The position numbers and the translations under genes are program-made. 64,000 nucleotides of DNA from an uncultured Balneola sp. Lineage in GTDB: Bacteria > Bacteroidota > Rhodothermia > Balneolales > Balneolaceae. The notes beneath the pieces are model-generated. The model saw only the letters and a program-made list of their open reading frames with translations. It had not been told where the DNA came from and did no database searches. This document shows, one piece after another, positions 7,133-37,487 of the stretch. Positions within the stretch are counted from its first letter, which is position 1; each line of letters opens with the position of its first letter. Location: the NCBI GenBank assembly GCA_913058495.1, contig CAJXQC010000001.1, forward strand, positions 60,779 through 124,778. Direction: 5' to 3'.

Positions 7133-7136
7133 CCTA

Positions 7137-8140: not shown

Positions 8141-8149
8141 AGTGATTTT

Positions 8150-8204
8150 ATTTAAGTGATTGCTTAAATATATAGTCAATAAAACGTTTAAGCAAATGAT
8201 TAAA
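8150..8204. promoter_or_regulatory. Two ArsR-type operator palindromes
   Basis: ATTTAAG-N6-CTTAAAT at 8150-8169 and a related TTTAAGCAAATGATTAAA at 8187-8204, directly upstream of the ArsR start. Confidence 0.65.
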
Positions 8205-8410
8205 TGAGGGAGTAAGTTAGGTACATACCCGTGTCTAAGGGCGCTCACTTATAAAAAATTCGGAATCATTGAGTAAAATTATAGTATCCAAAGGCGTGAT
8301 CATATATTGAATAAAGGAAAAGTTGCTTATAGACTTCTTTAGTAGGAAGAAATCACATTGTCTTTAAGCCCTGATTTTGTTAGCCTAAGCGCCAACCAAA
8401 TTGTTTATCT

Positions 8411-11605: not shown

Positions 11606-11755
11606 GAATAACACAAATTGCACATATACTTATTTTTTTATACTCTTCTTATTTAAAATTGTATTTTGATAATAAATATTTTTTTCACAAGACAAGTACA
11701 AATAGTTAATTATCAATCCCTTAATTATTTAGGGTAATAGTACTCAAATATTTGC

Positions 11756-14671: not shown

Positions 14672-14672
14672 T

Positions 14673-15347: not shown

Positions 15348-15363
15348 AAATAAATAACAAGCT

Positions 15364-16041: not shown

Positions 16042-16043
16042 AA

Positions 16044-16673
16044 TCAGCTAATCTGATTTACAAGGAATGTGTAGTCTTCAGAAGCTTTTGAAAAGAGACT
16101 TTTGTATTCCTCAATAGAATCAAACATTACTTCCGCTGCTTTATCCGATTTGTCCATATCAAAGATAAAGGCGTAGTGCGAAATGGTGTTGGGCGGATAG
16201 TAACCCTGATTCTTGGTTAACGGGAAATTTTTAGCAAATGACTCGTAGGTATAATAATCCAGAATCTCCTGATCAGTAATTCTGCCATTTACTTCTCTCT
16301 TGTTAATCCAGGGATCTTCAGCATGGGTTGCTTTAGAAAGCGTGATAGCGTTATAGAAGCCATAGCTATCCAAGATAAAATCTACTACTTCTTTTTCCTC
16401 TTTAGAGAGCGGAATGTAGCTTGGAGAATCTTCGATAGGGTTATTTTTATACTCCTTATACTCATGGTAAATACCGGGATTTACCGGTCCATGCTTCCAT
16501 GCAAAGAAAGCATCAGAAGATTTGATCATCTTTTGATCAGCAACAAGTGTCCATACCTTTACATAGTAGAGAAGTTTTTGGAGCTTCATCGGGGTAATTT
16601 CTCCTGGATACTTATTCAGGATATAAGACGCTATGTTGTGTAAAGAATGCATTCGTTGATTTTTTTGGAACAC
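16044..16673 (-). CDS. Panacea (DUF4065/SocA-like) antitoxin-domain protein
   Basis: ITPMKLQKLLYY, AWKHGPV, LSKATHAEDPW motifs; start may be 16652. Confidence 0.85.
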   Translation of the reverse strand: MFQKNQRMHSLHNIASYILNKYPGEITPMKLQKLLYYVKVWTLVADQKMIKSSDAFFAWKHGPVNPGIYHEYKEYKNNPIEDSPSYIPLSKEEKEVVDFILDSYGFYNAITLSKATHAEDPWINKREVNGRITDQEILDYYTYESFAKNFPLTKNQGYYPPNTISHYAFIFDMDKSDKAAEVMFDSIEEYKSLFSKASEDYTFLVNQIS

Positions 16674-16817: not shown

Positions 16818-17183
16818 TTAAACACCAAATTCATTTTTAGCTATAGAAGTAAGGAGTTCGGTTGCAATTGAAAAGGGAATCGAGCCACCTTTTTCTACAA
16901 CCTTTGTTTTGAATTTTTCCCAAATATTTTGGTTACGAGCAGCATCAATAAATTCCTGGCCTTTCCATTTGATTTCATTTACTTGAACATATGCAAAAGA
17001 GCCACCTGCTGTCTCATTGGTTGTGATATCTAAATATCCACCATCTCCAAGAAGCCAAACATGATACCCAATAGTTTCCTCGTCATATCCTTCAATTTCG
17101 ACAGGCCTAAATCTAACTTCCTCCGCAGGCTCATTAGATACTTTAAATAAAATAGCGCGAATTAAGTCGAGATCTCTTTTCAT
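16818..17183 (-). CDS. DUF2513-like winged-helix protein
   Basis: MKRDLDLIRAIL start, IGYHVWLLGDGGYL, W.GQEFIDAAR pattern. Confidence 0.7.
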   Translation of the reverse strand: MKRDLDLIRAILFKVSNEPAEEVRFRPVEIEGYDEETIGYHVWLLGDGGYLDITTNETAGGSFAYVQVNEIKWKGQEFIDAARNQNIWEKFKTKVVEKGGSIPFSIATELLTSIAKNEFGV

Positions 17184-17293
17184 TCGGAATTGATCATTCA
17201 TGAGTTTATTTGGTATTTGAAATATAATTTGAGTATTTAAAATGGATAGAAACTACGTTTATTCAAACGATTAATCACAATTCGGGGGAAATC

Positions 17294-20311: not shown

Positions 20312-20866
20312 TTATTGTGTGTTAAAGATTTGGTAGGAAATAAATCCTGTGATGATGAGTGGCACCAGTACCATGCTGGCCGTGGAAGCTTTGGAAATAC
20401 CCATTACCGACTCCACGATTTCTTTACGGCGCAGCACATCGGAGGCGTAATTTTGCCCGGTGGTAATCAGGTTCGGATCAATGCCAGCATTTATGGTATT
20501 TCTTACTTTTGAGTAGCCTGCGTTGTATGCCGCTACAGCTGGAGTGAGCTTGCCGCCAAATTTGCCGATCAGATCTGCCAGGAACTTGCTGCCATAGTGG
20601 ATGTTAGCGCGGTGGTCGTTATTGGTATGGGAGCTCGTAAAGTCCGAGTGATACCTGCGGTCGATTTGCATGATGCCGATGCCGTTGCCGTTGTCGCCCG
20701 TCCAGTTATTGTCCAACGCCAATCCCATATGGCTTTCCCTGGAGGCGATGGCCAAAAGCAGGGAAACCGGCACATTATTAGCCCGAGAAGCCTCATAGAA
20801 GTGCCCCATAATGCCTTTCACCCGAAGGTAGCTGAGCTGGGAAGATATGGACAGCGCGCTGCTCAC
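20312..20866 (-). CDS. Membrane-anchored lytic transglycosylase (SLT/lysozyme-like)
   Basis: IASRES (catalytic Glu), GIMQID, AAYNAG motifs; C-terminal TM. Confidence 0.85.
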   Translation of the reverse strand: MSSALSISSQLSYLRVKGIMGHFYEASRANNVPVSLLLAIASRESHMGLALDNNWTGDNGNGIGIMQIDRRYHSDFTSSHTNNDHRANIHYGSKFLADLIGKFGGKLTPAVAAYNAGYSKVRNTINAGIDPNLITTGQNYASDVLRRKEIVESVMGISKASTASMVLVPLIITGFISYQIFNTQ

Positions 20867-23292: not shown

Positions 23293-24069
23293 CTACTCCG
23301 CTGGGATGAATCCGGTTCTTATCTGCACGTAGCTCTCACAAAGGAAACTTACCTCGGCAGGCTGGGCACCATAGTTGGAAGCGTACACGTCAAACGGCAC
23401 GTTCGAGCCCACCACAAAGGGTACGTTGATGTACTTGTCGTTGAACTCGTCGTTCACCTGCTCCAGGAATACTTCATCGCGAACCGTGGTGTTGTACACT
23501 TTCATCGAAGCGGTAATAGCTCCTGGCTGGTTACTGCTCATGGCCATGCGCCGAACCTGAACGTCCACGCTTTTGCTTTTCACGCCCAGATCAATGTTGA
23601 GCCCGCCAGCTGGAACCGTGCTATGGCCATACAGGAACCGGGGCACGGGAATCGAAGCTCCAATCTGCTGGTAGGCCGCATTTAGTTTGGACAGGGCAAA
23701 CTGGTCATAACCGACAATCTGAATGTTTACCGTTTGCTTAGCAGCACCGGTATTGGTGAGTTCAAAAACGATATGGTTGTTCTTTTGAATGATAAAAGGA
23801 GCAAATAGTCCGTCAATAGATTTGAACAGATTGTGCACTACCGAGAGCTGGACGCCCCGAAACAGATAAAGGTCTTCGTTTAGACGAGCGGAAATCAAAA
23901 TGGCATTCATGTTGGCGCTGAACGGGAGAATCTTTCGGATGCCGTAGCGCTCTCCACCCATGCCGTTCATGGTAAGGTGAGCCGTTGCTCCCGGTTGCAC
24001 CTCAACCGATTTGGCCGGATTGTAAGCTGAACTTTCTTTAGGAGGTAAAAAATTGGAGAGTATCTTCAT
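23293..24069 (-). CDS. Putative double jelly-roll capsid protein (tandem duplicated beta domain)
   Basis: Halves align: VQPG/VPAG, GIRKI/QVRRM, PFIIQKN/PFVVGSN, TNTGA/SNYGA, IQIVGY/FLCESY; size similar to small DJR capsid proteins. Confidence 0.55.
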   Translation of the reverse strand: MKILSNFLPPKESSAYNPAKSVEVQPGATAHLTMNGMGGERYGIRKILPFSANMNAILISARLNEDLYLFRGVQLSVVHNLFKSIDGLFAPFIIQKNNHIVFELTNTGAAKQTVNIQIVGYDQFALSKLNAAYQQIGASIPVPRFLYGHSTVPAGGLNIDLGVKSKSVDVQVRRMAMSSNQPGAITASMKVYNTTVRDEVFLEQVNDEFNDKYINVPFVVGSNVPFDVYASNYGAQPAEVSFLCESYVQIRTGFIPAE

Positions 24070-24101
24070 GGTGTTGCTTTGAGGTAGTCAGGATTACTTG
24101 G

Positions 24102-24143
24102 AAAAAAGAATCCCGCCGGAATCAGCGAACTGAAACCGGCGGG
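24102..24143 (-). terminator. Intrinsic terminator after the 203-aa capsid candidate
   Basis: CCCGCCGG-N16-CCGGCGGG stem, then ATTC and a T6 run on the minus strand. Confidence 0.75.
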
Positions 24144-24153
24144 TAGGGATGGA

Positions 24154-24765
24154 TTACTCAACTTCAGCGACTACCATGGAAGCCCTGAGCCACAACTCTC
24201 CCTGACCGGATTGGTTCCAGTTCTCTGTGGTTGGGAACACTGAGGCGTCATCAAAATGGACGGCAAGGGAAACCGTCTGGTTGATGGCCAGATCAAACGG
24301 ATCGGCCAGGCGGTACTCACTGGCAGATTTCATGGTAACAAGCCGGCGATACTCGGCTACGGCGTCAACGGTATTATTGGTGGCCGAGGTAAACTGAATA
24401 CCGGTTCCAGCAAAGTTGGAGAACTCACTCATGGGAGCGCGGAGGAATTCCTTGTTGTCGTTATCGGCCTGAAGCAGAATGGCCGCGTCTTTGAGCCCGT
24501 TCACGATGGCGCGTGCATCGATGCCATTGGCTGGATCGTCTTCAATAAATTGTTTGGTGAGTTCAAAGGATAGGCCCAGAATCCGGCGTTTCATAGCTCC
24601 GGGAAACGGGTTACTTACATAGTTGTCCCGCGTTAGTTTTCGATCTGCATTAGCAGGAAAGAAATTAAGGACTGATTGATTTTGCTGTACTTTGCGTGTG
24701 TCAAAATAGGTCTTGATGCGCGCAGTAGCTGGAACAAGTGCTTTTTTGGAGATTTTATCGCTCAT
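24154..24765 (-). CDS. Putative single jelly-roll major capsid protein
   Basis: YFDT...LNFF...DN...PFP...RILGLSF...PFDLAIN beta-rich pattern; shares PFx[ILV]xxN with both halves of the next gene; followed by a terminator. Confidence 0.5.
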   Translation of the reverse strand: MSDKISKKALVPATARIKTYFDTRKVQQNQSVLNFFPANADRKLTRDNYVSNPFPGAMKRRILGLSFELTKQFIEDDPANGIDARAIVNGLKDAAILLQADNDNKEFLRAPMSEFSNFAGTGIQFTSATNNTVDAVAEYRRLVTMKSASEYRLADPFDLAINQTVSLAVHFDDASVFPTTENWNQSGQGELWLRASMVVAEVE

Positions 24766-24856
24766 AACTGTGATTTAAAAGGTTTAGAAAATGGCTGATA
24801 GCCGGTTTGGTATTACCAGTACCCCTTTTGCAATGCAGAGCTATGAGGTGTTATTT

Positions 24857-25360
24857 CTAGACTTCGATGGTATTATCAACCTCTAAAGAATGTTCTACCT
24901 CATCCACATGGTGTGTTTTTTCCTGGATTTCAGGCAGGTTGTCATACACGTACCCGGAGCCATCCATAAGACCTTGCTGGGGTGTCCAGTCAGGGGTAAT
25001 AAATTTGATGACTTCCATTACGCCTTGTACGCCCATACCCATGGCCAAACCGCGAACGTGTTTGTTTTTGGAAAGGAGCGTTAGAAGTACTCCAGCGGTG
25101 AGAGGGATACCTGCTCGGGTGGCTTGTTGAATAGTTGCTGAGGCGTTGCCTGTCAGCAAGGGGACGGCCAGGACATTCATCTGGGCTGCCACCGCTTGTC
25201 CACCAAGAATATATCCGGCGGTGATAGCCTGCTGCTTGAACTCAGAGACCGCCTTCTCGGTAGTGATTTTGCTTTCTGTTATCATATTACTGCGTCGTTT
25301 GTTTGGGTTTTCGATGATTTGTAGCTCGGAAGGGTTCTTGGCGAACACGCGCTCTTTCAT
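24857..25360 (-). CDS. Virion membrane protein candidate
   Basis: Several Gly/Ala-rich hydrophobic segments; N-terminal NP motifs; directly upstream of the capsid candidate. Confidence 0.5.
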   Translation of the reverse strand: MKERVFAKNPSELQIIENPNKRRSNMITESKITTEKAVSEFKQQAITAGYILGGQAVAAQMNVLAVPLLTGNASATIQQATRAGIPLTAGVLLTLLSKNKHVRGLAMGMGVQGVMEVIKFITPDWTPQQGLMDGSGYVYDNLPEIQEKTHHVDEVEHSLEVDNTIEV

Positions 25361-25388: not shown

Positions 25389-28300
25389 TCAATTAAGAAT
25401 GCCCCTGCCGTCTATGTTGACGTTAGCGATGATGTACACATCACCGTATTTAAACACCGGTCGCTTGCCCGCATCGAAGTAGTGGAAATAGTGATTGTCT
25501 TTGCCTTTTTCGTCATCGGCGTAGATAATCTTATCGCTCACGTACATAATGCGGTCGGCATAGCCGGCACTGATCAGTTTCTCGCCTAAAGGCGGAAACA
25601 GCTCATAATCGTAGTCATCTGCCGGGAAATGATGAAACTCCTCAAACATTTCGGCGGCTTTCGGGTCATTGTAAGCTCCCTTGGAGAGCCTCATTAAACT
25701 GGTTGGAAACACATAAATAGTGGTGCCTTTGGCGTTGATGATCATCGCCAGATCATCAGATTCGGCTTCCACGCGCTGCATGTAGCCCTTGGCGTCGATG
25801 TACTCCAGTTCCTTGACGATGCCGGAATAGACCAGTGGTTCTTCATAGAGGGTTTTGAGTACGCCGTGTCGTTTGGTGGTTTTTGCAGGCACACTGTCCG
25901 CCTTGTTCTCACGAAGTTGAGGCGATCCTTTGGGTGCACTGCCTTTTAGCGAACCCACATCACGGACAGTGATCGTTTTGCGGATCTTGTATTTCGGGGC
26001 GATCCGGTTGATCTCTTCATACAGCTCGTTCCGGTCATCGTAGCTCACCGCCACCAGCTGGTTGACCACATCGTTGAGTTCGATCACGGTCTTCTGATTG
26101 TTTTCGCTTGCGGTTTTAGACGCTTCCAGCTCTGTTTTGGTATCTGCCAGCACCTTTTGAAGTTCAGCCAGCGTTTTCTCGGTCTGCTTTAATTCACTGC
26201 TTAGCAGTTCCATGCGGGACTGGGAGGTTCTGATCCACGCTTTTTCGAGTTCCAGGAATAGCTCCGCCAGTTTTCGGGTGATAATCGGCTGCCACTTTTT
26301 GATGGTAAACATCCCGGCGGACTCTTTGATGGCCTTGAAGCTTTGCTCGTTTCCAACCTCGTCTTTTTTGGCCTTTTCGGCTTCGATGTCGATGCCGTAT
26401 TCCGCGTAAAAATCTTCCTCCGTGGCAATGATGTTGCCAAGGTTGCCGGAGATGGATTTGCCCTGTCCGGTCTTTTCTTCCAGCGTCCACCCGAAGGCAG
26501 TGGCCAGCTCTTTGGAGGCCATACGTTTGATGGAACCCCACGTCTGCTTGTTGTAGAACGAGCGGTCAGGGATATTGCTGTCGGGGATCAGGTGAAACCA
26601 TACCCGCCCGTTGGCATTGTTTTCGGGCACGTCCAGCACGGTTTTCATGCGGTAGCCGGAAATGCGTTTGGAGTCGGAGCTAAGCTGGATATCGAGCTGG
26701 TACGGCTCGCCGTTCCACCCGTACTGCACGTCTAACAGGTTCTCCTTTAACGCTTTTTCAGCGCTTTCGGGAAGCTTTGAGTTTTGTAAGGCCGATTCCC
26801 GCTCTACCACGCTTTTCATGCGATCCTGTTTTCCCTGGATATCGGTGGTCGCCTGCGCTTGGCTGGCTTGGAGTCGTTGCACTTCAGATTCCAGGTTGTC
26901 AATCCGGTCATCGAGTACGTTCTTTTGAGCTAAAGCTTCGAAAAATTGTTTTACTCGCGGATCGGAGTTGGTCGCGGCTACCATCTGCTCGTATTCCAGT
27001 GACTCCGAGTCGCCACCCGTGGACACTTCACGCACGGTGCCAAAGAACAGGTCATCAATCCAGCTCTGTTTTTTGGAGACCAGTTCCAGCCGGTACTGAT
27101 CAAAGGAGTCCTGCATTAGGTAGTAGTGAATCTGAACTTCCCCATACTGATTCCCCTGACGAAGCCCGCGCCCGTTGCGCTGCTGGATTTGCGAAGGCGT
27201 GTAGGGAACGTCCATGTGGTGCATGTCGGTCGTCCACTTCTGAAGGTTCATCCCCTCGGCAATCGACTGGTTGCCAATTACCACCCGGTACTTACCCTGG
27301 TTGAAATTGTCCTGCACTTCTTTCTTAAGCGCTTCCTTGTCGTCTTTGCTACTCACGGAGTAATCATCCCCGTTTTTGCTCGTGCCAATGATAGACCCGT
27401 TGATGATCGCAATCTGCTCTTTGGGGATTCCGGCTTTGACCAGCTCGGATTTGATGAGCTGATGGAAACTACCTCCCTGAGACTGATGAAGGCTGATCCA
27501 GTCGCAGAATATAATCTGGTTGCGAATAGCAGGGCTGGCTGGATTGGATCGGCTTGCTTTGATCTGCTCCCATTCTTTATTGAGCTTATGGGCGCGTTCG
27601 GTAGCTTCTTTTTCGTTGCCAAAGATGCCTTCGCTCCATGTGTGTTCTGGTTTTTTGGGCTCCAGTATATGCAGGGGCTCATACACTTCTTTCTTTTCAT
27701 CCCAGACCACCCAGTAGCCGCTCTTTTCTTTTACCACACCCTTGCTGGTAATGACCTCAATATGGGATGGGTTCTCCCGGAGGTGCGGAGGAGTCACGGC
27801 AATCTGTCCTCTGCCTGGCCGGTGAAAATAGTCGCCGTATAGGTCTTCCGGCACCATTTCGGGAGCGGGATTGGAACGGGCCCCGTAGGAAGCGGCCACG
27901 TTTTCGACCATTGCTCCAAGCTTGAGGTAGGATCGGTCGATACCTTCAAAATCCTTGTCGTACACCCGCAGGTCGGTCGCAATTTTGCTGCCATCGCCGG
28001 TAATTACAAGAAAGTTGTCGCGGGTTTCGCACTGCCGTTCTTTCATGCAGGCGATGACCTCGTTGGCCCGGAGGATAATGTCATCAAAAAGAAGCTTATG
28101 CAGCTCGCTGGGCTCAATAATCACGTTTCGGGTACTGGCCTTGGGGCGCTTGAATTTGGGTTCGAGCACCTTGGGTTTTCCATCCTTGCCATTGACCGTT
28201 TTACCGTCCTCATCCTGAATATAGTCTGGGAATTCCTTGTAAAAACCAATCAGCTGATCGTAGCTCTTGATGTCCATTACCTCGTCAATGATCTTGCGCA

Positions 28301-31300
28301 TTTCCGGCAGGTTGTAGTACCCGGCCACCACACGCTCGGAGCGGTATTCTCCGTTGGTCTTTTTGACGATCTTTTCTTCTTCCCGGACAAACAGGTTAAT
28401 GAAGTTATCGAGGTTTTCAATTTCGTATTTGGCCAGCAGATCCGGGGCGCATAGGTTAAGCATGTGCCACACCTCTACCGGAGAGTTCACGACCGGGGTT
28501 GCGGTAAGCACAAACACGTTTTTATGGCCCACTTTGCTGAACAGCCACCGCGTTTTTTGCAGGGTGTCTTCGGCTCGCTGGGAAGGCTTGTTCGCCGAGA
28601 TTCCCAGCTTGGCGGCTTTGGCCGAACCCAGGGCGTTTTTGTAGAAATGCGCCTCGTCAAAGAACAGGCAGTCCACGCCCAGCTCGTCAAAGAAAATATC
28701 GGTTTCAAGGCGCTTGGAATGCGCCACATTGCGGAGCTTGGTTTCCCATTCTTCCATCTGCTTTTCCATGCGTTTCATCATGGAGGTTTTGGCCGCTTTC
28801 GAGATGGCCTCGTCTTCTTCAAGCAGGTCCTCAAAATTTTCCAGCATTTGGTTGAAGTAGTCGATGCGCTCCTGGTAAATACGAGCCTGCTCTGCCGGAG
28901 ACAATGGAAGTGATTTAAAGGCGTGGTCGGCGATAAAGATAGCGTCCCAGTTGTAGAGCTGGGCCATCGTAAGTTCTTTATGCTTGTCTCCACCGGCCAT
29001 TTTCATGTTGAGGACTTTGGCGTCTGGAAAGAGCATCAGGTATTCTTCCACCCATTTTTCCTGCACTTTGCCGGGCACGACAAACATCGGTTTTCGGGCG
29101 GCTCCCTGCTGGAGGAGCACTTGGGAGGTGATAATGGAAGCCAGCGTTTTTCCGGCTCCCACATCGTGGCAGTTGGCACCTTTGCCGTTCCACACCAGCT
29201 TTTCGGCAATGGCGCGATTGTGCTTGTACACGGTAAAGTCTTTCACCCCGTAAAAGGTGTCGCTCATGCCTCGAACCCGAAGGGTGCGCCCGTCAAAAGG
29301 CGGGTTGATCACCGCGTTATAGGTATGGTTGTAGGCGGCCTCGATCATGCCTCGGACTTCGGAGGAAGCTTTGGTGCGCACCCAGTTGTTGAACTTTTTG
29401 GGCACGTGCGTAAGCATCCGGTTGTTGTTCTGGCGCTGTATTTTTCGCGCCCGTTCGATGAGCATCTGACCGCGTTCTCCCTTCATGGATTGCGCTTCTT
29501 TGAGCGTCATAGACGGCATGAGGTTGTCGTCCTCATCATAGAATTTCAGCGGAAAGGTGCTGTCCTGAATGTACGAGGTAATGATTTTGGTAAATGGCGT
29601 CTCGCCCCAGCCCAGGTTGTTGTCGTCGGGGGTTTCATCGCCCGTGCCCACATAACGGCCCCATTTCCGAAGCTTCATGTAGAACCGGTTGCCGAGCTCG
29701 GCTTTGTCTTTGACAAGGCCGATTTCCACTTTGTCGTAGTTCATTTCATCTTTGATCCACTCTTCAATGGCTTTGGCAGGCAGGTAAGTAAACACGTGCT
29801 GCGGGTCCACGGTAATGTTGTACACGTCGATCCATTCGGGCACCACCTCTTGTAGCGCCTTGATGTTCTTTTCCAGCTCGTGCTCCTGGGCCAGTTGCAG
29901 TTTCTCGCGCACGTTACCCGAGAGGTACTGGTAGCGAAATTCGTGGTTTGACGTGGCCGGATTCCAGTAAAAGTCAGGGTGATCTTCCAACGCTTTTTCC
30001 AGCTCCTCTTTGCTGGTCGTGCCCCCTTTGTACACCGATTGGTAGAAGTCAAGATCTAAGGTCTCACCAATACTGCGCCCGAACATGGCCAGCTCAGCCA
30101 AATCGTCAGAATCCTTTACCGCAGGCACATAGTTGCGATTGAACATAGAATCGGCGTCGATGATGTCGGCGTGCACCAGCTCTCCATTAAGCGGATCTCG
30201 TTTCACAAGGGTCGTGAGCTTGTAAAGCCGGTTGTCAAACTTGAACACCTTGCGAATGTCTTCGTCTTCATCGGGAACCCCGTACTGCTCGATGTGACCC
30301 GATAAAAGCTGCTTGAATTCAGCACGGAGGGCGTCTTTTTCGCTCGTTTCCTGCGCCAGTGCGGTTATATAGTCGTCGTATTTGTCCAGCAGCTGACAGG
30401 CCGATCGGGTGCGCGCCTCCAGTCCGGAGCCGCCTTTGAGGGTAAGCCGCTTGAAAAACCGTCGCTGTTTCTCGTAAAAATGGTTCTCATGGAAGACGAT
30501 ATTTCCCGGATGGTACGACCTTGGCAGGTTAAGCATAATGCCATCATCGGGAATGTTGTACAAGGGCATCTCGACCGGAAGCGAGTAAGGAAAAGTCAGC
30601 CCGTCAGAAAGCACGGAGTTAATAACAGATTCAGAAAGTTCACCTTTCACTCCCATACGGGAATAAAACTGTACGTGGTGCCCCTGAATATGCTCACCCA
30701 ACACGTGGTTTGGGTGTTCTTTATAGTACGGGTTGTAAGAAGCGGTATAGGTTTCACCATTATAGGAGACCTGACTTTCAATCAGCTCCTCTTGGGCAAA
30801 AAGTCGGTTGAGTTTCGAGTCCACGTCCGGATGAATGTCGCCCTGATGCTCTCCATATTTCTGGAAGAAAAGAATATCGGTAGTTACCGTGGTATCGGCG
30901 TTGTCTTTAAACGCCGTAGAAGGCAGCCGGTAGGCCCCTACAAAATGGGCGCGTTGTATCATAGCCTGACGAATGGACGGGTCTTTTTTATCCATTGTGC
31001 CCGTCGAGGTGATCACCGCCAAGAAACCACCGGGTTTAAGAGCGTCCAGGGATTTTAGGATAAAGTAGTCGTGAATGCGTGGGCTCATTGGGGCCAGCGG
31101 ATCGCGGGAAGTATGAATTTTCAGGTCCCCAAAGGGCACGTTCCCAACCACGCCAGTCAGGTTGTATAGGGAAAGATCGGTGTCGGCAAAGTTTTCGTGG
31201 CGCACGGTCTGCATTGGGTATAGCAGACTCGCAATACGGGAACTAATGGCCGAGCGTTCGATCATGACCATCCGAAACTTGTCGCGGTCGGGAAGGAATC

Positions 31301-32618
31301 CGGCAAAGTTGCCCACGCCAGCGCCTGGCTCTAAAATATTGCCACCCGTGACACCCATTAGTTGAAGCTTATCCCAAATGAGTTTGACCACGGGGTACGA
31401 GGTGTAGTGCTCATTTAGCAAGCCCCGCTTGGACTGCTCGGTGGATTCGGTGTAGCCTAACCCGCCCGCCCCGGTGTAAGAGCGGAGTAGGTCGATATCG
31501 GATTTGGTAATCGCGCGGTCTTCTTTTTGAAGCACCCCGATGGCCGCTTCGTTGGCTTTGCGACGCTCGGAGGCGGTTAGCTTGATGGGCGCAAATTCCG
31601 AAAGTTCGGTGTCGCTAAACCTAAAAGTTGATTGGCCTGATTTCTTTTTGGGCTGTTTGGCAGGTGTTGGTTTCTTAGATGTGGCTCGGTTAAATACCCC
31701 GTCAAAATCGACGCCGATGATGCGACCGTGTGCCCTGAAAAGCTCCAGGGCTTCTTCTCTATGCTCTGCCGGAAACTTGTCCAGCTGAAATGCCAAGGCC
31801 AGTTTACCTATGGTCTGCTCAAAATCTGCCTGAAGCTGTTGGAGCTCGCTGCCTGGATTAGACCGAAGGGTAAGCTGGGTTTCAAGCGCTTCCAAATCGA
31901 CCAAATAAGGTTCGAGTTTTTCCGCTGATTCGGTGTCGCCTTTGTCGGCTTTCCACGCGAGTTGGGTGAGTTCTTCCAGGAGTGCCCCGTTAAGCTGGCC
32001 CACTTTATAGGGCTGGTGCGAGGCCGCCGAAATCATGGACATCCGTTTGGTTTTAACCTGGATTTCGACCGGGTACTGCCCGTCCACTACGAGGATAAAA
32101 TGATGGGCGCGGTAGCCATTCGCTGGGTTTTTATATTTGTCTTCGTGTTCCCACACTTCGCCCAACTCGCCCGAAAGGATACGCTCCACCATCTTATCCA
32201 CCTGCTCCTGGGTTTCAGCAATGGCCATACAACCCGCCACATCGGTCAGGCCGGTAGTGTATTTTTCTCCGGCTTTGGTGGCCATTTTTTCGGTAAAGGG
32301 AAACCTTTTGCGAATGAGTTTCCCTAAAGTGGAATAAATTTCTTTAATTCGGCCCTTTACCACCAAGGCCAGATTCATAGCCAATAGCCCTTTCATGACT
32401 TTCTTTAGGGCCGGGATATAGTTGTTTTTCGCCTCAATCACGGCCTTGATCTGCGGTGCCAGTTCGGCCTCAGAAACCGGGGCGGTATCTCCCGGAGTAA
32501 GCGGGTTGGGATCATCAATATTGACAATCCCGTCGGAGTCCCAGTCGCCCAACCAGTGATCAAAGTCGCCGGTGGACAGGTGGGTAATCTGGTCGATATT
32601 TGTTTTAACTACGGGCAT
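25389..32618 (-). CDS. 2409-aa polyvalent protein: RelA/SpoT-like synthetase + N6-adenine MTase + SNF2 helicase (DarB-like) + unknown C-terminal domain
   Basis: KGRIK, DVAG, NGYRAHH, EIQVKT; LEPGAGVGNF, GNVPFG; HDVGAGKT, DEAH, LTATP, AEGMNLQ, QRNGRGLRQ. Confidence 0.85.
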   Translation of the reverse strand: MPVVKTNIDQITHLSTGDFDHWLGDWDSDGIVNIDDPNPLTPGDTAPVSEAELAPQIKAVIEAKNNYIPALKKVMKGLLAMNLALVVKGRIKEIYSTLGKLIRKRFPFTEKMATKAGEKYTTGLTDVAGCMAIAETQEQVDKMVERILSGELGEVWEHEDKYKNPANGYRAHHFILVVDGQYPVEIQVKTKRMSMISAASHQPYKVGQLNGALLEELTQLAWKADKGDTESAEKLEPYLVDLEALETQLTLRSNPGSELQQLQADFEQTIGKLALAFQLDKFPAEHREEALELFRAHGRIIGVDFDGVFNRATSKKPTPAKQPKKKSGQSTFRFSDTELSEFAPIKLTASERRKANEAAIGVLQKEDRAITKSDIDLLRSYTGAGGLGYTESTEQSKRGLLNEHYTSYPVVKLIWDKLQLMGVTGGNILEPGAGVGNFAGFLPDRDKFRMVMIERSAISSRIASLLYPMQTVRHENFADTDLSLYNLTGVVGNVPFGDLKIHTSRDPLAPMSPRIHDYFILKSLDALKPGGFLAVITSTGTMDKKDPSIRQAMIQRAHFVGAYRLPSTAFKDNADTTVTTDILFFQKYGEHQGDIHPDVDSKLNRLFAQEELIESQVSYNGETYTASYNPYYKEHPNHVLGEHIQGHHVQFYSRMGVKGELSESVINSVLSDGLTFPYSLPVEMPLYNIPDDGIMLNLPRSYHPGNIVFHENHFYEKQRRFFKRLTLKGGSGLEARTRSACQLLDKYDDYITALAQETSEKDALRAEFKQLLSGHIEQYGVPDEDEDIRKVFKFDNRLYKLTTLVKRDPLNGELVHADIIDADSMFNRNYVPAVKDSDDLAELAMFGRSIGETLDLDFYQSVYKGGTTSKEELEKALEDHPDFYWNPATSNHEFRYQYLSGNVREKLQLAQEHELEKNIKALQEVVPEWIDVYNITVDPQHVFTYLPAKAIEEWIKDEMNYDKVEIGLVKDKAELGNRFYMKLRKWGRYVGTGDETPDDNNLGWGETPFTKIITSYIQDSTFPLKFYDEDDNLMPSMTLKEAQSMKGERGQMLIERARKIQRQNNNRMLTHVPKKFNNWVRTKASSEVRGMIEAAYNHTYNAVINPPFDGRTLRVRGMSDTFYGVKDFTVYKHNRAIAEKLVWNGKGANCHDVGAGKTLASIITSQVLLQQGAARKPMFVVPGKVQEKWVEEYLMLFPDAKVLNMKMAGGDKHKELTMAQLYNWDAIFIADHAFKSLPLSPAEQARIYQERIDYFNQMLENFEDLLEEDEAISKAAKTSMMKRMEKQMEEWETKLRNVAHSKRLETDIFFDELGVDCLFFDEAHFYKNALGSAKAAKLGISANKPSQRAEDTLQKTRWLFSKVGHKNVFVLTATPVVNSPVEVWHMLNLCAPDLLAKYEIENLDNFINLFVREEEKIVKKTNGEYRSERVVAGYYNLPEMRKIIDEVMDIKSYDQLIGFYKEFPDYIQDEDGKTVNGKDGKPKVLEPKFKRPKASTRNVIIEPSELHKLLFDDIILRANEVIACMKERQCETRDNFLVITGDGSKIATDLRVYDKDFEGIDRSYLKLGAMVENVAASYGARSNPAPEMVPEDLYGDYFHRPGRGQIAVTPPHLRENPSHIEVITSKGVVKEKSGYWVVWDEKKEVYEPLHILEPKKPEHTWSEGIFGNEKEATERAHKLNKEWEQIKASRSNPASPAIRNQIIFCDWISLHQSQGGSFHQLIKSELVKAGIPKEQIAIINGSIIGTSKNGDDYSVSSKDDKEALKKEVQDNFNQGKYRVVIGNQSIAEGMNLQKWTTDMHHMDVPYTPSQIQQRNGRGLRQGNQYGEVQIHYYLMQDSFDQYRLELVSKKQSWIDDLFFGTVREVSTGGDSESLEYEQMVAATNSDPRVKQFFEALAQKNVLDDRIDNLESEVQRLQASQAQATTDIQGKQDRMKSVVERESALQNSKLPESAEKALKENLLDVQYGWNGEPYQLDIQLSSDSKRISGYRMKTVLDVPENNANGRVWFHLIPDSNIPDRSFYNKQTWGSIKRMASKELATAFGWTLEEKTGQGKSISGNLGNIIATEEDFYAEYGIDIEAEKAKKDEVGNEQSFKAIKESAGMFTIKKWQPIITRKLAELFLELEKAWIRTSQSRMELLSSELKQTEKTLAELQKVLADTKTELEASKTASENNQKTVIELNDVVNQLVAVSYDDRNELYEEINRIAPKYKIRKTITVRDVGSLKGSAPKGSPQLRENKADSVPAKTTKRHGVLKTLYEEPLVYSGIVKELEYIDAKGYMQRVEAESDDLAMIINAKGTTIYVFPTSLMRLSKGAYNDPKAAEMFEEFHHFPADDYDYELFPPLGEKLISAGYADRIMYVSDKIIYADDEKGKDNHYFHYFDAGKRPVFKYGDVYIIANVNIDGRGILN

Positions 32619-32621
32619 GGC

Positions 32622-34040
32622 TTAGCTAAGGACTTTTTCTAAAAAGGCATCGAGTTTGGCCTGGCTTTTTCGGGCGGCTTCTAGGTCTACTTCAGCCTTT
32701 GGAGGCGTCTGCTCTTTAGGCTTAGGTGCTGGTTTGGATTTCTTTACCGCCGATTTTTTCTTGGCGGTTTTCTTGGTGGGCGGAGTAGGTTTGCGCTTAG
32801 GTGTTTTCTTGGCTTTGGCTTTGCCGGTTGGCGGGCAATCCGCGGTGCCATCTTGCAACTTTTCCTGCCTCCGGTATTCTCGCGCGCCCAACACTTTCTT
32901 TGCATGATCCTGGGCCAGAATCTGTACTTCCAGATTTCCGTGCTTTTTCACCAGCTGAGCCCAGGAAGCCGCAAATCCGCCTTTGGCCCCTTCGGTGCAG
33001 ATCTGGGTTTTCAGCTCCCCGTCAATGAGCAGCTCCACGATGTAACGTTTGTTGTAGTAGTCGGGCACATAGCGAATGCTCAGTGTTGCCCGTTCGGACT
33101 CCCCGGAATGCTGTTTGGCGTAGCACGGCATTTTGGAGCCGAGCAGTGAATTCACCCGTTTCCAGGAGCGCAGTTTGTGGAGGGTATTGATTTTTTTGAG
33201 TGAGATCGTAAATGGCAACTCTACGGGATTATCGCGTGGCTCGCTGTGCGTGGGATTCATTAAATAGCTTCCTCTTTTTGAGGCCCAATGGGCTGCCTGC
33301 TGTTTAGTGAGACCAAATTCATCCTGAAAAAAGTCGATGAGTTCCTCATCAGTTGAGGTCTCATTATTAGAAAGCTGGTCTTCCACGCCTTCATGCTGGC
33401 TTTGCGTAAGCGGGGGAATAATTTTTAGAGTTTCGGCAGTGGCTAATGTGCCAAATGGAACATCGATGGCATTTAATAACTGATAGCGGTTTTTTTCGGT
33501 CTCAGCCAGTCCCTCTTTGGTTACTTTAATTTCAATGTCGCATTCGTGTGCGATACTGGTGTTGCCCTTATACTTGCCATCTTTGGTCGCATGTGCCACC
33601 ATGATGAACCCAATGCCATGTTCGCGGCACCACTGTGCCAGTTCTACCGTGGAGGCGTCTTTGGCGTCAATGACAGAAATAGAATCCAATACGCAAAAGG
33701 CAGATCTGTTTTTCAGCAGGGTTTCTTTTAGCGATGTGAGTGATTTCCACTTAGTAAAGTTCAGGTTGTTGTGGGTCGCTTTTAATCGCTTGACTCGGTC
33801 AATGAGTGTTTTACCGAAATGTTCTTCGGCTGGTATATATTCGACTCTACCGTGCTGTGCAAGAGCGTTTGCAAGGCCTAAACTGAAGGTGGACTTTCCG
33901 GCCCCTTTCTCACCCCAGATAAAGATGACGGCATTTTTCTCCGGTTCCCCAAGAAGTGTACCATAAGGTTCGGCAATCTTGATGCCTTTGATGTTTATTT
34001 TTGCCAGTTCTTTGGCGCTCAGAGTATTCTGGATGTCCAT
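32622..34040 (-). CDS. RecA/RadA(Sms)-like ATPase with Lys/Pro/Ala-rich C-terminal tail
   Basis: WGEKGAGKS Walker A, CVLDSIS Walker B, AH.TKDG...G...IAHECD, KNRY; tail KKTPKRKPTPPTKKTAKKK. Confidence 0.8.
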   Translation of the reverse strand: MDIQNTLSAKELAKINIKGIKIAEPYGTLLGEPEKNAVIFIWGEKGAGKSTFSLGLANALAQHGRVEYIPAEEHFGKTLIDRVKRLKATHNNLNFTKWKSLTSLKETLLKNRSAFCVLDSISVIDAKDASTVELAQWCREHGIGFIMVAHATKDGKYKGNTSIAHECDIEIKVTKEGLAETEKNRYQLLNAIDVPFGTLATAETLKIIPPLTQSQHEGVEDQLSNNETSTDEELIDFFQDEFGLTKQQAAHWASKRGSYLMNPTHSEPRDNPVELPFTISLKKINTLHKLRSWKRVNSLLGSKMPCYAKQHSGESERATLSIRYVPDYYNKRYIVELLIDGELKTQICTEGAKGGFAASWAQLVKKHGNLEVQILAQDHAKKVLGAREYRRQEKLQDGTADCPPTGKAKAKKTPKRKPTPPTKKTAKKKSAVKKSKPAPKPKEQTPPKAEVDLEAARKSQAKLDAFLEKVLS

Positions 34041-34041
34041 A

Positions 34042-34362
34042 TCAACGGTTCCTCATTTTTTTAGCGATCACAATTAAAGCACCGATGGCAATGCCAGCCA
34101 GAACAGCTTTGGTCAGCATGGCTTTTTTATCTGTTTTCATATTTAATGGAGCATTGGATACCCCCAGTTTTGAAAGTAGTGTTGGCCCGGCCTCTCCGGT
34201 TACCGGAAGAGAATACCTACGTTGAGCTTTCATAACGGCAGATTGGGTTTCACTTCCAAATTTTCCGTCAATACCATATTGAGGTAGATCAAATCCTGCT
34301 TTTTGCAATCCTGCTTGGAGCCTGATTACCTGTTGTCCTGAGGCGCCTTTACTGAGAGTCAT
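34042..34362 (-). CDS. Tail-anchored peptidoglycan-binding protein
   Basis: LSKGASGQQVIRLQ...L...IDGKFGSET..AV...Q...LPVTG PG-binding pattern; C-terminal TM plus KKMRNR. Confidence 0.85.
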   Translation of the reverse strand: MTLSKGASGQQVIRLQAGLQKAGFDLPQYGIDGKFGSETQSAVMKAQRRYSLPVTGEAGPTLLSKLGVSNAPLNMKTDKKAMLTKAVLAGIAIGALIVIAKKMRNR

Positions 34363-34754
34363 TTCTTCGATGTTGAGTTATACGTTCGATGTGCAAGCAC
34401 ACCTATTGTGATACCGATCAGAAGCGTAGAGCTATACTTTATCAGTGGTGATTTAGCTGAGGATGATAAAGGATCATCGGTAGTTAATTTCTTTGCCAGA
34501 GCCACCAAATCCACATACTCGAAGTAGGCGTCAATGACTCCGGCGTTCTGTTCATATACCCTGGTGATACCTGCTTTACTGGTGGTCAGGTTGGCCAGGT
34601 TGAGTCCCATCGTGGCAAGCTGGCCGCGACGACCACTTGTGGCGCTCTGAAGTTTCCCCGCAAACAGCTTAAAGGCGTTTTGCGAGGTGCGTTGCAGGTA
34701 ATCGTCCATGCCGTGTAATGCAGTACCGGTATGTGGTATAAAAGTTGATTTCAT
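34359..34754 (-). CDS. Tail-anchored membrane protein
   Basis: C-terminal LLIGITIGVLA plus basic tail; 4-bp overlaps on both sides. Confidence 0.6.
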   Translation of the reverse strand: MKSTFIPHTGTALHGMDDYLQRTSQNAFKLFAGKLQSATSGRRGQLATMGLNLANLTTSKAGITRVYEQNAGVIDAYFEYVDLVALAKKLTTDDPLSSSAKSPLIKYSSTLLIGITIGVLAHRTYNSTSKK

Positions 34755-35434
34755 TCGGCAGGTACTTTAGGAGCTAAGGCTTTTACACCCGCCCGAAGTC
34801 CAGGGAGCATGGGGGCTAAGAAATAAAGCCCCGCACCAGCAACCGATATAATGATCACCCGTTTGAGTAGCGTATTCACCTCCCCAAGGGTGTTACCCGG
34901 TCCAAGTTCGGGCATCTTGTACCACGACTCGGTGGGTGGAGAATACACCCCGGACTGCTCGCCGGTTTTCTGGTCCAGGTCGAGGGAAATGGGTGCGGAC
35001 TTTTCGATGAGATCTGAAGCGGGTAGCTTGCTTAAATCAATATCATCGGGGTACACTTCAAAAACCACTTTATGGCCCGAGGTGGGAACAAACGAACGGT
35101 CAAAAACGAGTCGTCCCTGTGCGCGGCAACCGTCCATCATCGACGTTCCGAACCGCTGGAAGCCTAATACAGACCCAGTCTGCTCCGACCGAACCACCAC
35201 AAGGGCGTCGGGGCATTGCCCCCAGCTGGCCAGAAACGGAACAAACAGCACTTTGGCCCAATTCCGGAAGGTTTCAATTTCAAGGTCAAGCGAAAACGGA
35301 ACCCCGCTGGGCGGGTTCCCCGAGGCGGGGTTACGCCCGATAATGCGAAGTTCTACAGCCTCGGAGCTTATGATATTGCTGGACAGGTTGAGCTGCCCGA
35401 GTCCGGTGTCGATATATCCTGATTGCGCGTTCAT
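34751..35434 (-). CDS. Tail-anchored beta-sandwich protein (SGY...GLG motif)
   Basis: QSGYIDTGLG; beta-rich core with two Cys; TM VIIISVAGAGLYFL. Confidence 0.6.
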   Translation of the reverse strand: MNAQSGYIDTGLGQLNLSSNIISSEAVELRIIGRNPASGNPPSGVPFSLDLEIETFRNWAKVLFVPFLASWGQCPDALVVVRSEQTGSVLGFQRFGTSMMDGCRAQGRLVFDRSFVPTSGHKVVFEVYPDDIDLSKLPASDLIEKSAPISLDLDQKTGEQSGVYSPPTESWYKMPELGPGNTLGEVNTLLKRVIIISVAGAGLYFLAPMLPGLRAGVKALAPKVPAE

Positions 35435-35435
35435 T

Positions 35436-35705
35436 TTACCTCCTTAGCAAGCGGTAGCCTACATAAAGGCCACCTGCGATTAGTAAGGTGTTCTGGTTAT
35501 CCCGAATCCACTGCGAAAGTGAAATCGGCTGCTCCTGAAGTCGCTGGCATAGTTTTTTGGCCGCAGGCTCTTCGCCTTCGCCCATTTCTATGACCTGCAT
35601 ATCCGGCTGCTCGTAAGAAGTATCTTCCGTGTCAGGCAATACCATAGGGGCATGGCCACCTGGAACGCCACCGTCTAAATACGTTGAAATTCGTCCTGCT
35701 TGCAT
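35436..35705 (-). CDS. Small acidic tail-anchored protein
   Basis: C-terminal LLIAGGLYVGYRLLRR. Confidence 0.6.
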   Translation of the reverse strand: MQAGRISTYLDGGVPGGHAPMVLPDTEDTSYEQPDMQVIEMGEGEEPAAKKLCQRLQEQPISLSQWIRDNQNTLLIAGGLYVGYRLLRR

Positions 35706-35707
35706 AC

Positions 35708-36031
35708 TTACTTCTTCAGCACTTTGAGTAGAATGATCCCACCGACTATGGCGATTCCTGCTATGCCCGCATACTTGATCAACTCTCCCGAGCCGCTGGG
35801 AGCAGGTGCGCCTTGGCCGGGATATAGCACCGGCGGTTGTCCGCCTCCAGACTTGTTTCCGCCTTTGTTGACGACCCCATCTATGGTCACCACGGTATCG
35901 GTTGCGGTCTTAAGTAAGTCGTTGATAGAGGTTAAAGCCGAGCCAAATTTGGTTTGGGTGGGCTGGGAAACGATAGCTGCTCGTTGGTTGAGAAGGTCAA
36001 AACTGGTATAACCGCTGGGTTGTTTGGTCAT
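35708..36031 (-). CDS. Small Gly-rich tail-anchored protein
   Basis: PSGY; C-terminal YAGIAGIAIVGGIILLKVLKK. Confidence 0.6.
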   Translation of the reverse strand: MTKQPSGYTSFDLLNQRAAIVSQPTQTKFGSALTSINDLLKTATDTVVTIDGVVNKGGNKSGGGQPPVLYPGQGAPAPSGSGELIKYAGIAGIAIVGGIILLKVLKK

Positions 36032-36044
36032 GGGACAGGCCTGC

Positions 36045-36467
36045 TTATTTAGAAGATTTCTTTTTTCGTTTCAGCATCAAAACCGCCAAAGCAATAGCTC
36101 CGGTAAGAGCAACTCCACCCACAGCGATACCCGACTTCATGGTCGAATTGGCTGTCTGCTGCTGGGAAGCGGTAGTGGTAAGATTGGTCTGGAGCGCCTG
36201 CATCATTTCTTCGCGCTGGCCTTCCCACTGGGCTTTCTTTTGAAGGGAAGCTTCGTGCGCTTTGCAAAGCGCCTGACTTTTCTCACGTTGACGGCGGCAG
36301 CTTTTCAGCTTGCCAAACATTTTGCCTTTACAGCTTTGGTTGGCGTACCGGCACGGGTCGGTTTCTTCCCAATTGCCCAGTCCGGGACTGATGGCCACGG
36401 CAATCACCGCATTTTCCTCTCCAATGACAGTATCCTCTAAGGGAATGATAAATCCACTTTTACTCAT
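36045..36467 (-). CDS. Cys-containing tail-anchored protein (SGF...GLG motif)
   Basis: KSGF...PGLG; four Cys; C-terminal TM plus KRKKKSSK. Confidence 0.6.
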   Translation of the reverse strand: MSKSGFIIPLEDTVIGEENAVIAVAISPGLGNWEETDPCRYANQSCKGKMFGKLKSCRRQREKSQALCKAHEASLQKKAQWEGQREEMMQALQTNLTTTASQQQTANSTMKSGIAVGGVALTGAIALAVLMLKRKKKSSK

Positions 36468-36470
36468 GGT

Positions 36471-37487
36471 CTATTTATTTAGAAGCATATACCCGCCACC
36501 AATCAGAACCAAGGTTCCAATGGCAAGACCAGCATACAGCCCCATTTTTTTGGTTTTATTTGCTGCTTGTTGTTGAGTAACCCAAACCGGGGAAAGTTGC
36601 CCGTAGCGATTCAGTTGCTGAACCGCCGGGGCACCAAGTTCATCTATAATCTGTGCGTAGCGCTGAAGTGTGGCATTATCCTTTTGGGAAAGACTGATGA
36701 CCTCGGATTGCACGCCTCGCTGCATGAGGTGATCTCGAAGGGCTCCGCGCATTTGGCGCTCACCAGAATCCTTGGCTCCAAATATGCTGGACAAGGTATT
36801 TTTTAGCGTCATCCCGGTACTGGCCATTGTTGTAGCCGTGGTGAGTAGCGTAATAGGGTCAAGCCCCAAACCTTCCGGCATCAGGTTGGTGACGTGCCTG
36901 GATTTTTTAATGAGCCGCTCATCAAATACGTAACCTGGATATTTCAGCACAGTTGTATCGAAAGATTTCCAGCCGGTAGGTGATTGGTACACCGCGTAAA
37001 TATGGTCAAAGTGACGTCCCGTTCGCGAGACAATGCGAAAGCCCGTTTGAATACCTAAGCTTTGCAGCAAGGCAGCACCTAAAATGGCATGATCATCGCA
37101 GTCACCGGCTCGCTGAGTAATGGTGACAAAGGGCGATTGAATACGCTCGACATCCCATGGGTCGCGCACGTAATTCACGTTGCGCACCATCCACTTGTAT
37201 ATGGCGGAGGCAATAGCGTCAATGTTTCGCAGGTCGGGTTGTCCGGTAAGCCGGTGTCGCCGGATTGTGCTTGTAATTTTGAGAGCAAGTGAGCGAATGC
37301 GCTCGTCGCCGGTATATTTAGTAACCAACCTGCTGGCTGCCGAAATTACGCCTTCCACACCGGGGTAGGCCTGGCGTCGTGTAGAAAGAGGTACTGTGGA
37401 TGCTTCCAAAGAAGCATCCACAGCCCGTGCTCTGGCATGTTGCTGCTGGGTATCTGGTAATATCTGTACGTAGCCACTTTGCATCAA
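36471..37487 (-). CDS. Transglutaminase-like (Cys-His-Asp) enzyme with C-terminal membrane anchor; putative maturation protease
   Basis: YVRDP...GDCDDH, FDHIYA, SFDTT triad; internal EGLG; C-terminal TM. Confidence 0.8.
   Translation of the reverse strand: MMQSGYVQILPDTQQQHARARAVDASLEASTVPLSTRRQAYPGVEGVISAASRLVTKYTGDERIRSLALKITSTIRRHRLTGQPDLRNIDAIASAIYKWMVRNVNYVRDPWDVERIQSPFVTITQRAGDCDDHAILGAALLQSLGIQTGFRIVSRTGRHFDHIYAVYQSPTGWKSFDTTVLKYPGYVFDERLIKKSRHVTNLMPEGLGLDPITLLTTATTMASTGMTLKNTLSSIFGAKDSGERQMRGALRDHLMQRGVQSEVISLSQKDNATLQRYAQIIDELGAPAVQQLNRYGQLSPVWVTQQQAANKTKKMGLYAGLAIGTLVLIGGGYMLLNK

Follow-up and report, generated by a model that had tools for sequence, protein, structure and literature searches.

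This report concerns a 64,000-nucleotide stretch of DNA from an uncultured Balneola sp. of the family Balneolaceae (GenBank assembly GCA_913058495.1, contig CAJXQC010000001.1, positions 60,779 to 124,778 of the forward strand; hereafter the window), and in particular a giant gene at 25389..32618 on the minus strand, which lies within an element resembling an integrated relative of SSIP-1, the Salisaeta icosahedral phage 1. A first-pass annotation, made from the letters alone, had described its product as a 2409-residue polyvalent protein in which alarmone-synthetase motifs are fused to an N6-adenine methyltransferase and an SNF2 helicase. The list of open reading frames (ORFs) and their translations confirmed a gene of this size (P0001) with an ATG start. 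About 30 clusters of full-length orthologues were found, at identities of 39–88%, and the nearest homologues were those of Fodinibius, Aliifodinibius, Rhodohalobacter, and Gracilimonas, all members of the Balneolaceae. ORFs in the other frames of the same strand within the giant gene were rejected, as their translations were basic, of low complexity, and not conserved in an orthologue with 50% identity.

The N-terminal 255 residues were assigned to a RelA/SpoT module (31854..32618; this and all other features of the giant gene lie on the minus strand) on the basis of Pfam, the fold predicted by AlphaFold2 (AF2), and the catalytic residues. The Pfam family RelA_SpoT (PF04607) matched residues 89–206 (32001–32354) over positions 1–110 of its 113-position profile, scoring 42.7 bits (gathering cut-off, 27) with an E-value of 7.9e-11. 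The four alarmone-synthetase motifs quoted in the first-pass annotation, which had placed them at about 31900–32420, were all located at 32049–32357, namely KGRIK (residues 88–92, 32343–32357), TDVAGCM (residues 125–131, 32226–32246), GYRAHH (residues 168–173, 32100–32117), and EIQVKT (residues 185–190, 32049–32066). That annotation had offered to give up its proposal if the N-terminal domain failed to resemble RelA_SpoT profiles; both the profile and the predicted fold matched.

An N6-adenine DNA methyltransferase domain, recognized from PHROG matches and sequence motifs, follows at about residues 347–604 (30807..31580). Its signal in Pfam was weak, with a sub-threshold match of 17.7 bits to Eco57I at residues 512–559; in PHROGs, residues ~350–1950 gave a strong match to phrog_11801, “DNA methyltransferase” (5.7e-174), and the giant protein also matched phrog_10089, “DarB-like antirestriction” (8.2e-172). 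The N-lobe of an SNF2 ATPase, containing GAGKT, DEAH, and TATP, occupies residues 1150–1415 (28374..29171; Pfam SNF2-rel_dom, 29.2 bits against a cut-off of 24.9, and ResIII), and the helicase C-lobe, containing QRNGRG, spans about residues 1721–1947 (26778..27458; Pfam Helicase_C at residues 1761–1822, 27.9 bits against a cut-off of 23.5, and an NCBIfam DrmD-like match over residues 1757–1947). Methylase motifs I (EPGAGVGNF) and IV (GNVPFG) and the four helicase motifs were invariant among the orthologues. These results agreed with the proposed fusion of a methyltransferase to an SNF2 helicase, the pair being DarB-like according to PHROG and the SNF2 part intact according to Pfam. Two of the orthologues are called “N12 class adenine-specific DNA methylase/ppGpp synthetase” by the automatic annotation of JGI. 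The protein terminates in a conserved module at residues 2260–2409 (25392..25841) that ends in IDGRGILN, and no MPTase processing peptidase domain was found in it by a Pfam scan. The predicted layout is thus a RelA/SpoT pyrophosphokinase (residues 1–255), a DarB-like N6-adenine methylase with an SNF2 translocase (about residues 347–1947), a coiled region, and the C-terminal module.

SSIP-1 is a tailless, ~100-nm icosahedral virus (T=49) with a membrane inside; its genome is circular and 44 kb long, and it has two types of major capsid protein. Tblastn searches in both directions identified nine genes of the window that are collinear with SSIP-1, with E-values from 5.6e-4 to 1e-32; they correspond, in the same order, to gp34, gp35, gp36, gp40, the C-terminus of gp43, gp44, gp45/46, gp47, and gp54. 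Among them, all on the minus strand, are a transglutaminase-like (papain-fold) protein homologous to gp34 (36471..37487; Pfam Transglut_core; tblastn 5.6e-32), which is a candidate maturation protease; a P-loop ATPase homologous to the structural ATPase gp40 of SSIP-1 (32622..34040; tblastn 1.5e-32); three genes similar to the structural genes gp44, gp45/gp46, and gp47, which are capsid candidates (23293..25360); and an SLT lytic transglycosylase homologous to gp54 (20312..20866; Pfam SLT; tblastn 2e-24). The giant gene therefore lies within an SSIP-1-like virion module, as its earlier placement in a structural operon had implied. That annotation had further put it between membrane-protein genes and capsid candidates. 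The capsid candidates are indeed situated downstream, whereas the gene directly upstream is the P-loop ATPase and not a membrane-protein gene; small proteins with C-terminal hydrophobic helices are encoded further upstream, at 34042–36467.

The guanine-plus-cytosine content is ~50% in the element (19–38 kb of the window), compared with 31–43% in its flanks, and no match to tailed-phage portal, terminase, or tail families was obtained among the neighbours of the giant gene. Judged from its gene order, the element is an SSIP-1-like provirus, or the remnant of one, in a Balneolaceae bacterium. We also considered that it might be a conjugative or defence island whose giant protein is moved by a secretion system, as conjugative elements are where methylase-SNF2 polyvalent proteins occur most often (PMC5512222), and SLT and peptidoglycan-binding genes occur in type IV secretion loci too. 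The collinearity of nine genes with a cultured virus argues strongly against such an origin, and neither a relaxase, VirB4, nor a coupling protein was seen among the ORFs scanned, so that we regard it as very improbable.

When the giant protein was compared with SSIP-1 gp43, the only clearly significant match was confined to the last ~90 residues (32% identity, E 8e-9), and both proteins end in RGILN. When the last 130 residues served as the query of an exhaustive phmmer search, 82 representative clusters were recovered, of which 64 had E ≤ 1e-10; a word-based search with the C-terminal region returned close relatives only. The match nearly always reached the final residue of the carrier proteins, whose lengths ranged from 45 to 4086 aa. 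A Pfam scan of 32 carriers detected MPTase-PolyVal, ddrB-ParB, and ArdcN (11 carriers each), Helicase_C (9), SNF2 (8), LPD3 (4), and ART-PolyVal (2); Zeta toxin, LPD1, LPD29, and several methylases were each present in one carrier or more; RelA_SpoT was not found among these 32 carriers. The module itself had no Pfam match at E ≤ 0.1. An AF2 model of the last 125 residues, with a predicted local distance difference test score (pLDDT) of 93.1 and a predicted template modelling score of 0.85, showed a beta-rich domain with one helix, for which no significant neighbour was present in the PDB or BFVD (best E 0.95 and 0.26, respectively). In a scan of IMG/VR with the module, SSIP-1 itself was the only match. 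Within the host family, the module was detected in 33 of the 200 genomes searched, representing 9 of 43 genera, and within the host's own genus in only 1 of 22 other genomes; this patchy occurrence fits a mobile element.

Eight loci in genomes of the host family displayed the same gene order, consisting of the transglutaminase-like gene, the ATPase, a cargo ending in the module, and the gp45/46-like and gp47-like genes. The transglutaminase-like gene was detected in all eight, and gp35-like and SLT genes in most of them. One locus (L025) contained a full-length orthologue of the giant protein, and the cargo proteins of the other seven resembled the giant protein in the C-terminal module only. 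In seven of the eight loci the ATPase domain was fused to the N-terminus of the cargo, typically in the order ATPase, ArdC-N, MPTase, ddrB-ParB, and module, giving proteins of 774–1726 aa. The MPTase domain was present in six of these seven related cargo proteins, as well as in 11 of the 32 other carriers. The ATPase ORF of the window shares its frame with the giant ORF, and only a TAA and one GCC codon (32616–32624) stand between them; a read-through fusion of the two was not supported, as the frames differ in L025, the orthologue with 50% identity.

A short motif, R-x-N-P, recurs in these proteins. In 53 carriers (70,481 aa), 155 occurrences were observed, compared with 8.5 expected from shuffled sequences (18-fold enrichment), and eight other patterns used as controls stayed within about twofold of expectation. 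The last R-x-N-P was located 145–170 residues from the C-terminus in most carriers, and the motif stood directly before the C-terminal module in at least 90% of the 32 diverse carriers. The giant protein contains three such sites, each reading R-S-N-P. Junction 1 is located at the end of the RelA/SpoT module (residues 252–255, 31854..31865), and the other two, at residues 1581–1584 and 1690–1693 (27867–27878 and 27540–27551), flank a variable insert between the helicase lobes (27540..27878). Across 23 orthologues, R and N of the three sites were invariant and P was conserved in 87–100% (87% at junction 1), and nearby linkers varied. The insert itself showed 23–26% identity with about 35% gaps, and the R, N, and P at both of its ends were 91–100% conserved. 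Junction 1 falls in a loop where the AF2 confidence drops, relatives with an extra N-terminal module of 105 aa have it joined via RKNP, and several orthologues begin with MRDNP, as SSIP-1 gp41 begins with MRENP. The motif was also observed in SSIP-1 gp41, gp42, and gp43, and several separately encoded modules open with M-R-x-N-P. The ATPase of the window carries R-D-N-P at residue 269 (33225–33236); the residues that follow it (270–472, 32622–33230) form an extra module, which ends in a Lys/Pro/Ala-rich, histone-H1-like tail and in L025 does not share the frame of the ATPase domain.

These patterns suggested that R-x-N-P marks the junctions between modules, including the end of the RelA/SpoT module, and that it could be a site of cleavage, an address peptide with which each module starts, or both. 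In several viruses that lack an envelope, maturation proceeds through self-cleavage at Asn-X bonds, such as the Asn-Pro bond of reovirus mu1. For cleavage at R-x-N-P, the conserved transglutaminase-like protein is perhaps the candidate protease. Taken together, the carriers and the eight loci delineate a fixed cargo slot between the virion ATPase and the capsid genes, in which interchangeable enzyme modules with R-x-N-P joints are followed by a constant end of ~150 aa.

In the SSIP-1 record (GenBank NC_017983), gp34, gp40 (the ATPase), gp43, and gp44–48 are annotated as structural proteins. Because gp43 occupies the same position and has the same C-terminal module, its annotation supports association of the giant protein with the virion, and the particles probably contain it. 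A different possibility is that the protein is unpackaged and acts in the producer cell, where it would methylate progeny genomes before packaging and tune nucleotide pools late in the cycle, as would be expected of a gene co-transcribed with late genes and as many phage methylases do work in the producer cell. This alternative does not account readily for the structural annotation of the SSIP-1 protein, or for the kind of cargo that the module sits on (ArdC-N, MPTase, ART, and Zeta-type), such as is typically seen in proteins that are transferred. The fusion of the ATPase to the cargo in seven of the eight loci also argues against it, given that the SSIP-1 homologue of this ATPase, gp40, is annotated as a virion protein. 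We thus consider confinement to the producer cell quite improbable.

The fold of the RelA/SpoT module was predicted by AF2 for residues 1–330 from an alignment of 15 orthologues (pLDDT 76.7). According to Foldseek, the closest folds were those of Staphylococcus aureus RelP (6ewz) and Bacillus subtilis RelQ (5ded), with E-values from 3e-8 to 1e-6, a probability of 1.0, and target TM-scores of 0.52–0.68; long Rel enzymes and CapRel ranked next. A search of PDB sequences with the family profile gave a similar ranking, with E-values of 2.5e-11 for YwaC/RelP, 1e-7 for RelQ, 1e-7 to 1e-5 for long RelA/SpoT homologue (RSH) enzymes, and 0.05 for CapRel, and matched no FaRel2 or Tas1 chain. Residues that were invariant in the 15 orthologues, which are 39–79% identical, included R90, K92, S96, K100, R103, K104, D126, G129, Y169, H172, H173, E185, Q187, H201, Y204, and K205, and the catalytic residues were likewise unchanged in about 30 Balneolaceae orthologues. 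The donor-phosphate motif R-x-K-x3-S-x3-K and its basic helix are present and align to RelP; GYRAHH supplies the Tyr for the acceptor base (GYxxxH), and EIQVKT supplies the catalytic E-x-Q strand. By alignment with RelP and the description of FaRel2, the invariant residues account for the contacts to the donor triphosphate, the Asp that binds metal, the Tyr that stacks on the acceptor, and the E-x-Q strand.

The catalytic core is common to the nucleotide-modifying enzymes and to the toxic small alarmone synthetases (toxSAS), and the motifs cannot separate the two classes. The module might accordingly be read as a toxSAS that targets translation, the more so as its predicted fold also matches CapRel (7ztb, E 4e-6), phage-borne PhRel2 enzymes target tRNA, and the N-terminal extension (residues 1–85) could serve in RNA recognition, like the N-terminus of FaRel2. 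The family profile, however, is far nearer to the (p)ppGpp-forming RelP and RelQ (2.5e-11 to 1e-7) than to CapRel, with no FaRel2 chain recovered; the extension is acidic (DxDxDG..DDPxP), not basic; and no pZFD or Panacea-type antitoxin gene adjoins the giant gene, whose neighbours are the ATPase and the gp44-like gene. The SocA/Panacea gene of the window (16044–16673) stands beside a Fic gene, 9 kb away. A toxSAS therefore seems unlikely, and the closer likeness to RelP and RelQ weakly favours a nucleotide acceptor over tRNA. The host's own long RSH gene is located elsewhere in the genome.

One position shows a systematic departure. In FaRel2, the Arg of the DxxGxR motif is R95, which, like R64, stacks against the adenine of the donor and also touches the acceptor base, and this Arg is described as conserved in FaRel2, RelP, RelQ, and Rel. 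The first-pass annotation had remarked that the motif reads DVAGCM here, with possible consequences for activity or product, and the substitution proved to be family-wide: the residue is Met in the giant protein (M131) and in a stand-alone homologue (P0206), Ile in P0013, and Glu in P0027, and it was Arg in no relative. It could be argued from this loss of the donor-stacking Arg, otherwise conserved in FaRel2, RelP, RelQ, and Rel, that the module is catalytically inactive and retained for nucleotide binding or structure. Invariance of all other donor-phosphate, metal, and acceptor residues down to 39% identity is, however, hard to explain without catalysis, and Met can pack on a purine ring; we regard loss of activity as rather improbable. 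Our reading is instead that the RelA/SpoT module is an active enzyme whose donor pocket has been remodelled. Since the pocket is altered by the replacement of Arg with Met, the donor preference or the product may differ from those of canonical enzymes.

The RelA/SpoT module opens with an acidic motif, GDWDSDGIVNIDDPNP, at residues 24–39 (32502..32549), of the form D-x-D-x-D-G-I-x-N-x-D-D-P-x-P. D25, D27, D29, N33, D35, D36, and P37 were invariant in the 15 orthologues, the motif was kept in the stand-alone homologue P0206, and no Pfam match to it was found. We take it to be similar to the calcium-binding loops of thrombospondin type-3 repeats.

The RelA/SpoT module constitutes a discrete cassette, since it is missing from one natural variant and encoded on its own in another. 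The first, P0032 (2087 aa, 55% identity; L035 6001–12264, on a contig of Logan SRR33769992), is a complete mid-contig ORF without the module that starts ...LTMRENPADVNELRQQF, exactly at junction 1. The second, P0206 (L017 9528–10301, on a contig of Logan SRR12927082), is a stand-alone RelA/SpoT gene of 257 aa with 37% identity across 97% of the queried module; it ends a gene run that includes an M23 peptidase, and its virus-like contig also encodes an ArdC-N/MPTase protein. In L018 (ENA ERZ1757541 contig_2854), the giant gene was called in pieces, namely a 315-aa RelA/SpoT piece and two helicase pieces, and this copy is probably a decayed or mis-assembled provirus.

On balance, we consider it rather likely that the product of the giant gene is a polyvalent protein of phage type, belonging to an integrated virus of the SSIP-1 kind, carried in the virion and active on entry. 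The course of events that we infer, comprising packaging, delivery, enzyme activity with its product, and processing at R-x-N-P, would be as follows. The C-terminal module would bring the giant protein into the assembling particle, maybe beside the ATPase at the packaging vertex, and linkage to the ATPase may also help to bring it in. The protein would then enter the next host cell along with the DNA, where the methylase-helicase would move along the incoming DNA and shield it from restriction, as proposed for P1 DarB. The RelA/SpoT module would take pyrophosphate from a donor nucleotide and pass it to an acceptor, for which a purine nucleotide is most likely, to yield a (p)ppGpp- or (p)ppApp-like product. 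In the first minutes, transcription and translation in the host, as well as its nucleotide metabolism, would thereby be slowed or reprogrammed.

Several points weigh against this account. Both the presence of the protein in the particle and the passage of a 270-kDa protein from a tailless membrane virus into a cell are steps that we infer, and gp43 shares no sequence with the giant protein beyond the C-terminal module and a weak methylase match. The R-x-N-P before the C-terminal module is missing in the giant protein's own subfamily. The change of Arg to Met, with Ile or Glu in relatives, may weaken canonical ATP binding. Neither an antitoxin nor an alarmone hydrolase is evident in the element, so that nothing shows how toxicity during production would be handled. 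Finally, no integrase was found among the ORFs scanned, a homologue of the SSIP-1 integrase was likewise absent, and no direct repeat of the region of the tRNA-Met gene at the right edge of the element was found elsewhere in the window as an att repeat; without an integrase or att repeat, the element may be a remnant. More speculatively, SSIP-1-like viruses might possess a protein-loading system of their own, made up of the ATPase-linked polyprotein slot with its string of interchangeable enzyme modules (among them an alarmone-type synthetase whose donor pocket is remodelled), R-x-N-P as address or cleavage signal, and the C-terminal module, which has no structural neighbour, as anchor, with the enzymes loaded at the packaging vertex and released into the host through the membrane-derived delivery tube, as a portal-independent counterpart of two tailed-phage systems, Dar and the internal proteins; we put this forward only tentatively, as a doubtful extension.

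The tRNA-Met gene (CAT) that forms the right edge of the element lies at 44142–44216. Between the collinear block and this gene, a DnaG-type zinc-ribbon protein and a 771-aa protein are encoded. In the nearest genome of the genus, synteny was lost at the tRNA, and the left end of the element was not defined by this comparison. Near-identity DNA searches of phage and plasmid collections with the 20-kb element gave no match. The left flank resembles a defence island (8411–16673), with a protein that combines an N6 methylase domain with a C-terminal specificity domain of Type ISP (8411–11605), an Eco57I/MmeI-like methylase protein (11756–14671), and the Fic gene beside the SocA/Panacea antitoxin gene (15364–16673). 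The two large restriction-modification genes, a few kb away in the host, represent the kind of barrier that such a virus meets. A DUF2513 gene is situated at 16818–17201, and mercury resistance genes at 5495–8248 encode a MerA-like reductase with HMA, a MerT-HMA protein, and an ArsR-type regulator.

RelA/SpoT domains were reported from polyvalent proteins of the phage type in a computational study of 2017, which predicted an alarmone-like response on entry (Iyer et al., J Bacteriol; PMC5512222); those cases came from spirochaete and epsilonproteobacterial (pro)phages and included MuF fusions, and a portal-terminase system unifies most, not all, of the phage-type cases (PMC5512222). The giant protein resembles them in carrying several conflict enzymes on one polypeptide, in its location in a late or virion module, and in combining a methylase-SNF2 dyad with RelA/SpoT. 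It differs in belonging to an SSIP-1-like virus with no portal or terminase match, in having no MPTase domain, and in ending in a C-terminal module without a Pfam family; the words Salisaeta, tectivirus, and membrane-containing are absent from that paper (PMC5512222). SSIP-1 gp43 (2319 aa, “DNA methyltransferase; structural protein”; NC_017983) is similar in its position after the ATPase, its size, its methylase domain, and its RGILN module, but it carries ParB_N and a small methylase, with neither RelA/SpoT nor SNF2. P1 DarB, which is part of the phage head and guards DNA in cis against type I restriction (PMC5512222), is likewise a giant methylase and helicase protein; unlike the present one, it belongs to a tailed phage with other packaging partners (DarA, Hdf, and others) and has no RelA/SpoT domain and no RGILN module. 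The analogy with P1 is functional only, because the virus is of the tailless membrane-containing type. RelP, RelQ, and the toxSAS enzymes (FaRel, FaRel2, CapRel, PhRel2, and Tas1) share the synthetase fold and catalytic motifs, whereas here the domain is fused into a 2409-aa protein with no antitoxin partner, a Met in place of Arg, and an acidic N-terminal extension. The domain combination alone is thus already known in kind, and no earlier description of the virus lineage in this role, the C-terminal module, the ATPase-linked slot, or R-x-N-P was found in the sources consulted.

Discussion of injected polyvalent proteins has been limited almost entirely to tailed phages and conjugative elements, and the present case extends it to a tailless, membrane-containing lineage. 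This lineage is known from a single cultured isolate, and its proviruses occur in about one-sixth of the host-family genomes searched; what it provides is a delimited slot for cargo, a tail module that is conserved, and a short motif at the junctions. Should the RelA/SpoT module prove active, the virus would be delivering an enzyme that imposes a stress signal on the host at the moment of entry, and the enzyme's altered donor site may then mean a new substrate or product.

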